DNA of 64,000 bases from the NCBI RefSeq assembly GCF_045037415.1, contig NZ_CP173438.1; one strand, 5' to 3'. Positions within the stretch are counted from its first letter, which is position 1. Each line of letters opens with the position of its first letter. Made by a program: the position numbers. Of the stretch, positions 45,001 to 48,000 are shown piece by piece. The DNA is from Escherichia coli (GTDB lineage: Bacteria; Pseudomonadota; Gammaproteobacteria; Enterobacterales; Enterobacteriaceae).

Positions 45001-48000
45001 GTCGGTCCAGTTGCTGAAAAGGAACAGTGGCGGCACGATATGCTGATTCGTTTTCCTGAAGATACAGGTACTCTGCCCTGGATCCTGTTAAGAACACCTT
45101 ACAAAAACGGCACGGTCATTACCGCCACGGATTATTATTTTATTCAGGACATCATCTCTGTGGTTCATGCGGTTCCTGCAATACGATTCCGTTTGGGAAA
45201 CACGGTCCTGTCAGCCAGCGGAAAAAATGTCACTCTGCTCCCGGACGACAGCGGTATACAAAAAGAAAGTCATTCAAAAAAATATCCGTTCTCCCTGATT
45301 TATATCATCCCGGTGAAAATGCAACTTACCTACGCCTGGAAACAGGCCTGGTATATGATCCCTGTTGCCATCTTCGGTGGAATACTCACAGCCTTTCTGC
45401 TGTCCCGCCGACGTCCATCTTCCCCGCTCGATATGCTGAAAAATGCACTTGCTCACGGAGAGTTCAGACCTTATTTTCAGCCCATCATTTCCGCTAAAAA
45501 TCACCAGCTAACCGGCTGCGAAGTACTGATTCGCTGGCATCACCCCGTCAGCGGAATTATCCCACCAGATCAGTTTATCCCGCTGGCAGAGTCCACCGGA
45601 TTAATTGCCCCGATAACGCAACAGTTGATGTCTCAGGTCGAACATAGCCTTAATTCTGTTGCGCATTTTTTACCGAATCAATTTCATATTGGGATCAATA
45701 TTTCACCAGCGCATTTTCTGTCTCCGGGACTGGAGGATAGCTGTATGAAGTTTCTATCCACCTTCCCGAAAGGGAAAGTGAAACTGGTTCTGGAACTGAC
45801 AGAACGAAACCAGCTATCCGTCACCGCAGAATCAAAAGCGTTATTTGCGAAATTACATCAACAGGGAGTATTGTTTGCACTGGATGATTTTGGTACTGGC
45901 TATGCAACCCACAGCTACCTGCAGTCGTTTCCTGTCGATTACATCAAACTCGATAAAGGGTTTGTACAAATGGTCGGCGTGGATGAAATCTCCGGGCATA
46001 TAGTAGAAAATGTTATTGAGCTGGCTCGCCGGTTAGGTATTGATATCATTGCCGAAGTCATTGAAACCGAATCACAGGAATTGTTCATGACAGAGAAAGG
46101 AAGCTGCTATCTGCAGGGATACCGCTATGCACCTCCACTACCCGCTGAACAGTTTATTGCTGAGTGGGTATACAACAGCGGAAACGGCAAAAACCAGAGA
46201 TAACACATACTGAAATGGACCAGGATATGCGTCCCCCCCTTTCACCTCATCTCCCAACTCCCGGGTTTGATTCCTTTTTCACAGCAAAAGGGACTGAGGG
46301 TACAAAAGAGGGTACATTTTTAACCAAACCAAACAAAATTAACCAATCTCAACATGATAGAAGCAATCTTCGATTCCGAGTCCGGCACCAAATTCATATA
46401 AACGGACCTCCACGGAGGTCCATTTTTCGTTTCAGGACGCCACGATTTAAGCGTCCTGCCGCCAAATCAATTCTACCGAACTCAACCAGATTCTCCCCAC
46501 ATCACCAGCAATTTGCGGGCATATCCCAATTCGGGAAAATTTGTTTCTGAGCTATAGCGCTGACTGACGTGAAATGTCGTGCGGCCCCGTGATGCTGTTG
46601 AACGTCAAATGACGTCATCAGGAGCGTAATGCATCCATAAAGCACAACATCGGGCAGAACGCCAACTGATGAGATTTTCTGAATGAGAACAAAGAGAAAT
46701 GTATCAGTCCGTTTGCTCATGCAAAGACTAACAATCCATTAAAATAGTAAGCGCTCCGGACAATTTTTCATGGATTATTTTCTGAACATTTTTCTTTGGC
46801 AAAGATGATGAATTTTGATGGTAAGGAAAATTACTTCTGGTTCTCAGTAAAATCCTTTCGTAATACTATGTAATCAAGAAGTTTATGGCGAGTAAAAATA
46901 ACGTCTTGCATTCACCAATAATATGTAAATAAACCCATCTATAGATGGAAAAAATAGGTTATGGCAATTATCATTGCATCATTCCCTTTTCGAATGAGTT
47001 TCTATTATGCAACAACCTGTAGTTCGCGTTGGCGAATGGCTTGTTACTCCGTCCATAAACCAAATTAGCCGCAATGGGCGTCAACTTACCCTTGAGCCGA
47101 GATTAATCGATCTTCTGGTTTTCTTTGCTCAACACAGTGGCGAAGTACTTAGCAGAGATGAACTTATCGATAATGTCTGGAAGAGAAGTATTGTCACCAA
47201 TCACGTTGTGACGCAGAGTATCTCAGAACTACGTAAGTCATTAAAAGATAATGATGAAGATAGTCCTGTCTATATCGCTACTGTACCAAAGCGCGGCTAT
47301 AAATTAATGGTGCCGGTTATCTGGTACAGCGAAGAAGAGGGAGAGGAAATAATGCTATCTTCGCCTCCCCCTATACCAGAGGCGGTTCCTGCCACAGATT
47401 CTCCCTCCCACAGTCTTAACATTCAAAACACCACAACGCCACCTGAACAATCCCCAGTTAAAAGCAAACGATTCACTACCTTTTGGGTATGGTTTTTTTT
47501 CCTGTTGTCGTTAGGTATCTGTGTCGCACTGGTAGCGTTTTCAAGTCTTGAAACACGTCTTCCTATGAGTAAATCGCGCATTTTGCTCAATCCACGCGAT
47601 ATTGACATTAATATGGTTAATAAGAGTTGTAACAGCTGGAGTTCTCCGTATCAGCTCTCTTACGCGATAGGCGTGGGTGATTTGGTGGCGACATCACTTA
47701 ACACCTTCTCCACCTTTATGGTGCATGACAAAATCAACTACAACATTGATGAACCGAGCAGTTCCGGTAAAACATTATCTATTGCGTTTGTTAATCAGCG
47801 CCAATACCGTGCTCAACAATGCTTTATGTCGGTAAAATTGGTAGACAATGCAGATGGTTCAACCATGCTGGATAAACGTTATGTCATCACTAACGGTAAT
47901 CAGCTGGCGATTCAAAATGATTTGCTCCAGAGTTTATCAAAAGCGTTAAACCAACCGTGGCCACAACGAATGCAGGAGATGCTCCAGCAAATTTTGCCGC

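Follow-up and report, generated by a model that had tools for sequence, protein, structure and literature searches.

An orphan tRNA-Phe 3' end upstream of cadC as the probable attR of a pheU-integrated pathogenicity island in Escherichia coli

Why does the last part of a tRNA-Phe gene stand by itself upstream of cadC? In the 64-kb stretch of E. coli DNA analysed here (the window), positions 46369-46390 of the + strand read TTCGATTCCGAGTCCGGCACCA. K-12, THO-003 and strain 4/0 share an identical pheU, whose 3' terminus is ...GGTTCGATTCCGAGTCCGGGCACCA. The fragment corresponds to the final 23 nt of E. coli tRNA-Phe minus one G of the GGG run, leaving 22 nt with GG; 22 of the 23 nt are kept with a single 1-nt deletion, and the copy is oriented like pheU. 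The initial annotation had described an orphan 22-bp tRNA-Phe 3' end with one G missing and the rest of the tRNA absent, and had read it as the distal attachment-site repeat of a tRNA-integrated island. We recovered its exact coordinates and sequence, and comparison with the pheU end confirmed GG for GGG.

The two ends of the island

The 22-mer was the sole match in the window in a search at ≤3 mismatches, and 100 dinucleotide-preserving shuffles of the window gave 0 matches, even at 3 mismatches. The unoccupied site of K-12 has the order dicD-pheU-yjdQ(pseudogene)-cadC. We observed that K-12 and the window become homologous precisely at 46369, a point within the tRNA, and that the island DNA left of this position is wholly absent from the K-12 site (Table 1). 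The shuffles and the exact coincidence with the homology break leave a chance resemblance to a tRNA end without any credibility. ARAGORN found no tRNA gene in the 64-kb window, and Rfam at gathering thresholds returned no tRNA over the whole window, its sole match being the ALIL pseudoknot of an IS3-family element; the rest of the tRNA is absent, as first described. GC content showed no sharp step at the boundary (~0.42-0.46 on either side of 46390). A mechanical ORF overlapping the fragment (46164-46550) was disregarded; it is unannotated in every RefSeq genome inspected.

Table 1. Features of the window that bear on the orphan repeat and its surroundings
Feature	Position	Strand	Basis
Right-hand 46 kb of the island	1..46368		RefSeq annotation of the near-identical THO-003 stretch; absent at the K-12 site
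77-aa AlpA-family helix-turn-helix protein	2508..2741	-	Pfam Phage_AlpA E = 1.6e-10; PHROG E = 8e-10
EAL-domain protein, putative c-di-GMP phosphodiesterase; last gene of the island	44668..46203	+	NF007839
Conserved right arm of the island	46250..46368	+	Alignment of five island ends at pheU and pheV
Orphan tRNA-Phe 3' end; probable attR core repeat of the pheU-integrated island	46369..46390	+	Sequence; identical to the published attR in PMC11537424 Table 1
Putative older-relic leader, homologous to the integrase-proximal leader (P' arm) of the present island	46391..46523	+	90% identity over 155 bp
Terminator hairpin GGACCTCC-ACGG-GGAGGTCC + T-run, follows pheU in K-12	46404-46421	+	Terminator scan
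yjdQ-type pseudogene: frameshifted C-terminal stub of a P4-type integrase, N-terminus missing	46588..46747	+	RefSeq; MG1655 yjdQ b4654; 71% identity to the int 3' end
Post-int homology, ~117 bp	46748-46864		Alignment to the sequence after int
cadC, first core gene right of the pheU site	47007..48545	+	ORF call and RefSeq

To place the locus among other genomes, we used an 861-bp query that spans the interval between the end of the EAL gene and the beginning of cadC, with the fragment inside it. This query had at least a partial match in 5408 of 5426 complete E. coli genomes and was covered at ≥80% by a single match in 1230 of the 5426. Strain 4/0 was 100% identical over these 861 bp and 99.5% identical over a 47 kb island stretch. 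It was set aside as the nearest relative, its differences being clustered at 36-39 kb; THO-003 and ~50 others are closer. A search with the 36-39 kb patch found ~55 genomes at ≥99% identity, THO-003 among them.

We let THO-003 (NZ_AP022525.1) stand in for the source genome. Over 50 kb, it and the window had 0 mismatches and differed by three small indels, namely one copy of a 9-bp tandem repeat and two indels of a single base; the other 15.8 kb held 1 mismatch. The 9-bp tandem unit (GATACCGGG), at ~9137, is present in one copy fewer in the window than in THO-003. The left flank in THO-003 runs frd-ampC-...-groSL-aspA-dcuA-cutA-dsbD-dicD and is followed by an intact tRNA-Phe, pheU (4602884-4602959, +). 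A 420-aa tyrosine recombinase, int (4603157-4604419, +), has its ORF start 198 bp past pheU. The orphan 22-mer lies at 4720169-4720190 on the same strand as pheU, and the 3' ends of the two are 117,231 bp apart. Strain 4/0 has the matching pheU-int-orphan layout with a span of ~127.7 kb. An intact tRNA-Phe and an integrase to the left, which the initial reading implied, are thus both present in these near-identical genomes (117.2 kb in THO-003; 127.7 kb in 4/0). On the THO-003 layout they fall ~70.8 kb beyond the left edge of the window, so the window alone could not reveal them. A search for internal or degenerate att copies across the 117-kb island of THO-003, at ≤4 edits, found none; at this edit distance, nothing indicates that the present island is made up of several pheU islands in tandem.

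We considered whether a deletion or an IS event had instead destroyed a pheU gene in place and left the fragment as its stump. Such an origin would agree with the lack of a tRNA gene in the window and with a nearby IS (ISEc10, 42094-44345). However, an intact pheU stands beside dicD 117 kb to the left in the near-identical genomes, which makes the fragment a duplicate; the identical 22-mer and its left arm also end islands at pheV; the closest IS ends >2 kb away; and the breakpoint coincides with the published attR (PMC11537424). Destruction in place is highly improbable against these observations.

An intact tRNA gene with an integrase at one end, a partial repeat at the far end and a break against the empty site mark a tRNA-integrated island, and each of these was found at this locus. 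These data suggest, with a high degree of confidence, that a large pathogenicity island of uropathogenic E. coli occupies pheU and that the orphan fragment is its attR, as the initial annotation had proposed in its outline. The fragment would mark the right edge of a large virulence island in a uropathogenic lineage, which helps annotation and island delimitation.

The missing G and the site of strand exchange

We read island ends at pheU in the window, CFT073, O145 RM8843-C1 and O104:H4 2011C-3493, at pheV in KMS2001 (where kpsF follows), and at the end of a different island in strain E5. The G-less core (GG), ...CGATTCCGAGTCCGGCACCA, was present in 6 of 6 ends, at both pheU and pheV sites. 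A 71-nt junction query made of the island end and the fragment was spanned at ≥80% in about 1224 of the 5426 complete genomes. These data indicate that the missing G is a family trait of the island ends and not random decay.

The same core is known from the literature. An attR of 'TTCGATTCCGAGTCCGG-CACCA' is tabulated for many GI-pheV islands (PMC11537424 Table 1, PLoS Genet 2024), and the attR core of the window is identical to this string, including the missing G, as in the GI-pheV and GI-pheU islands with an intP4-type integrase. According to PMC6174562, a 22-bp direct repeat, shifted by one base against K-12, terminates insertions at pheU and pheV. The 22-nt imperfect attR of a pheU-integrated island is an already described feature, tabulated for pheV and pheU islands, and it tells nothing new on the biology; the missing G and the older relic before cadC are mildly informative. 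The GI-pheV of KMS2001 shares the conserved right arm and the terminal EAL gene with the window. It differs in site, the window island being at pheU (dicD ... cadC) and not at pheV (yqgA ... kps/yghD), and the repeat in the window precedes an older island relic, not native chromosome. No relevant experimental data on the attP of pheV islands turned up in the literature that was consulted.

We also compared the sequence left of the core. The ~120 nt next to it had a mean column identity of 91% across the window, CFT073, O145, O104:H4 and KMS2001, and the string CAAAAGGGACTG.GGGTA.A...GAGGGTA.A was invariant across this five-end alignment. Two direct GGGTACA motifs (46298-46304 and 46310-46316, 12 bp spacing) lie 50-70 bp left of the core, and a similar GGGTATA pair occurs in the attL leader between pheU and int of THO-003. 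We infer that the conserved right arm is the P arm of attP, and that the GGGTA(C/T)A (GGGTAYA) pairs are plausible candidates for arm-type sites of the integrase N-terminal domain.

A comparable arrangement is known from satellite phage P4 and from the she PAI: a tyrosine integrase carrying an N-terminal arm-binding domain beside a tRNA 3' end, a short repeat of that end at the opposite boundary, and an AlpA-family gene. In Shigella flexneri, the she PAI occupies pheV and has a 22-bp imperfect repeat and the AlpA-like excisionase Rox. In contrast to these elements, the present island is without phage structural or replication genes, and it is known here from its sequence.

In the mechanism that we propose, the integrase would have recombined the attP of the island with the end of pheU. 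This attP would hold a copy of the tRNA 3' end with GG, not GGG. After integration, attB sequence would stand left of the crossover in attL, and attP sequence left of the crossover in attR. The intact tRNA gene would be kept at the integrase-proximal junction (attL, outside the window), and the G-less copy of the island would be left at the far junction (attR), followed by the DNA formerly downstream of pheU. A functional acceptor stem needs GGG at the end of tRNA-Phe. We observed that attL always had GGG and attR always GG, at two different chromosomal sites. The simplest explanation would be a GG in attP itself, with strand exchange 3' of the G-run. In KMS2001, the native sequence downstream of pheV begins immediately after ...CACCA, which would confine the exchange to roughly GGCACCA. 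On the basis of this junction and of parsimony, strand exchange is predicted to occur within these last ~7 nt. The conserved missing G would in this way constrain where the integrase cuts.

DNA between the repeat and cadC

The initial annotation had placed the right boundary of the island about 600 bp upstream of cadC. The gap from the end of the fragment to the cadC ORF measures 616 bp, and 46390 holds as the edge of the present island. Foreign-derived DNA nevertheless continues to ~46864, ~140 bp short of cadC, and the boundary therefore does not separate island from core DNA: the stretch 46391-46864 appears to be an older relic.

This stretch aligned with the other end of the present island. 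Window positions 46369-46523 matched the THO-003 pheU 3' end and the leader before int at 90% identity over 155 bp, and positions 46580-46864 matched the last ~200 bp of int and ~117 bp beyond it at 71% identity. Between the two aligned blocks is a gap equal to ~1.1 kb of int. Aligning both copies of the repeat, as the initial annotation had suggested, gave an attL/attR repeat of ~155 bp at 90% identity with a core of GGG in attL versus GG in attR. An older relic downstream of the insertion would account for this extended length, and with it the original pheU crossover point is unreadable at this locus alone.

The origin of the leader was assessed with a chimeric query, in which the K-12 yqgA-pheV upstream sequence and tRNA were joined to the leader and int start of the THO-003 pheU island. 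The chimera had a 100% full-length match in several genomes and was covered at ≥80% in 3044 of 5426 genomes. In K-12, whose pheV site is empty, the sequence downstream was unrelated to the leader. The leader follows pheV in genomes with an island and is missing from the empty K-12 pheV, which argues that the leader and its hairpin are island-borne. Integration downstream of the tRNA, which the 155-bp extended repeat could have indicated, was rejected on the same two observations.

K-12 itself carries the equal frameshifted integrase stub (yjdQ, b4654), leader and terminator hairpin that the window has at and before its yjdQ-type pseudogene. In K-12, yjdQ stands directly behind an intact pheU, whereas in the window it stands behind the orphan 22-mer, because the newer island inserted between them. 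We interpret 46391-46864 as what is left of an older island that belonged to the present one's family. By the same homology, the K-12-type pheU-cadC spacer would be a relic of an older island, and the hairpin terminator of E. coli pheU appears to be island-derived. The locus would then be a tandem array of pheU, a 117-kb PAI, pheU', the relic and cadC. If true, each new pheU island joins a tandem array with ~155 bp of homology.

Two proposals can be held jointly. In one, the G-less copy is a heritable property of attP that limits strand exchange to GGCACCA, with a 1-nt asymmetry between attL and attR; in the other, the pheU-cadC spacer in practically all E. coli, with the pheU terminator, stems from an ancient same-family island, as its integrase-proximal arm. 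We lean slightly towards both being correct.

Cargo and mobility of the island

We used the RefSeq annotation of THO-003 to assess what the island carries. Its cargo includes a pap operon with papG-II and a second chaperone-usher fimbrial cluster; hlyCABD, cnf1, cdiBAI and a DNA cytosine methyltransferase; dsdCXA and a cutC/cutD choline-TMA-lyase microcompartment cluster; and a YeeP-like GTPase/antirestriction/CbeA-CbtA module, many IS and an EAL-domain gene. This gene content identifies it as a uropathogenic E. coli pathogenicity island of the papGII/hly/cnf1 kind, with a length of 117 kb in the nearest genome. Its annotated functions are P fimbriae, haemolysin, CNF1, contact-dependent inhibition, and D-serine and choline utilisation. 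The hly/cnf1/pap islands like PAI II-J96 are similar known islands. Published papGII PAIs occupy pheU, flanked by yjdC and cadC, and the pheU and pheV sites have one integrase gene in common (PMC7686366, Biggel et al., Nat Commun 2020). The THO-003 island resembles them in its yjdC (dicD)-cadC site, in the integrase shared between pheU and pheV and, by gene content, in carrying papG-II, hlyCABD, cnf1 and cdiA/cdiB.

The part of the island inside the window comprises the end of cdiB, two inovirus-Gp2-like genes, dsdCXA, the cutCD microcompartment cluster, an IS3 element, nhaC/malY-like genes, a restriction endonuclease, the YeeP-GTPase/antirestriction/CbeA-CbtA module, ISEc10 and the EAL gene. 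The best NCBIfam match of the EAL protein, NF007839, scored 266 bits, under the equivalog cut-off of 461. The dsdCXA D-serine utilisation locus (5294-9139) adjoins an integrase-core pseudogene. The choline-utilisation microcompartment cluster is complete by RefSeq annotation (9793-20772, -), with the choline TMA-lyase cutC, the activase cutD, BMC shell proteins, aldehyde dehydrogenase, PduQ-like and PduL-like genes, and two small DMT transporters. One inovirus Gp2-like gene (3617-4183, -) adjoins the AlpA-family gene, and the other lies at 30299-31030 (-); neither had an NCBIfam match. These two genes may mark junctions of once-separate island modules. The IS3-family element (23469-24682, -) has a programmed frameshift, with its ALIL pseudoknot at 24285-24401. 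ISEc10 (IS21 family, istA/istB; 42094-44345, -) splits a DUF4942 gene into a 236-aa part (41335-42045) and a C-terminal stub (44436-44597), and CFT073 has ISEc10 at the identical place.

We then asked how the island may have arrived and whether it could still move. An integrative conjugative element at pheU/pheV, such as ICEEc2, was rejected: by RefSeq annotation there is no complete T4SS, relaxase or coupling protein, and over the 117 kb the sole annotated feature of transfer machinery is a truncated TraG N-terminal pseudogene. An island ridden with IS, with only this fragment of a transfer system, is not an ICE. The integrase of THO-003 has predicted Arm-DNA-bind_3, Phage_int_M and Phage_integrase domains and matches PHROG 1 ('integrase'), which together correspond to the full-length three-domain architecture of P4-type integrases. 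The PHROG matched by the AlpA-family protein is labelled 'excisionase and transcriptional regulator', and this protein is a candidate recombination directionality factor (excisionase) of the island.

A different history agrees with the attR reading on what the fragment is, and differs from it on arrival and present function. The repeat would be a true but ancient att scar, the whole pheU region with its island having been gained through homologous recombination in the flanking core, and the island would now be fixed and immobile. The mosaic make-up of the island, with many IS and pseudogenes and only the TraG fragment for transfer, is consistent with this history. Internal homologous recombination is indicated by the 3-kb patch at 36-39 kb, with its ~210 differences from strain 4/0, and mismatches in the repeat are reported to reduce deletion frequency (PMC11537424). 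However, the integrase keeps its full length and its three domains, a candidate excisionase is present, and movement of islands between pheU and pheV has been inferred (PMC7686366). We regard the immobile-scar history as rather unlikely, though to be taken seriously. On the attR reading that we prefer, the island may still be able to excise.

The patch itself (36000-39000, in the DUF932/antirestriction module) accounts for ~210 of the 220 differences from strain 4/0, and the remainder of the 47 kb is near-identical. Their clustering points to a gene-conversion or recombination patch, and the donor was probably a paralogous module elsewhere in the genome.

Right of cadC, beyond cadBA-dtpC-lysS-ghoST-yjdJ, we observed a gene for a 1309-aa autotransporter (57072-61001, -) and an AraC-family regulator (62157-62987, -). 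In THO-003, an S6-family (SPATE) peptidase gene lies just past the position of the right end of the window. The autotransporter, AraC and SPATE genes possibly form another accessory segment.
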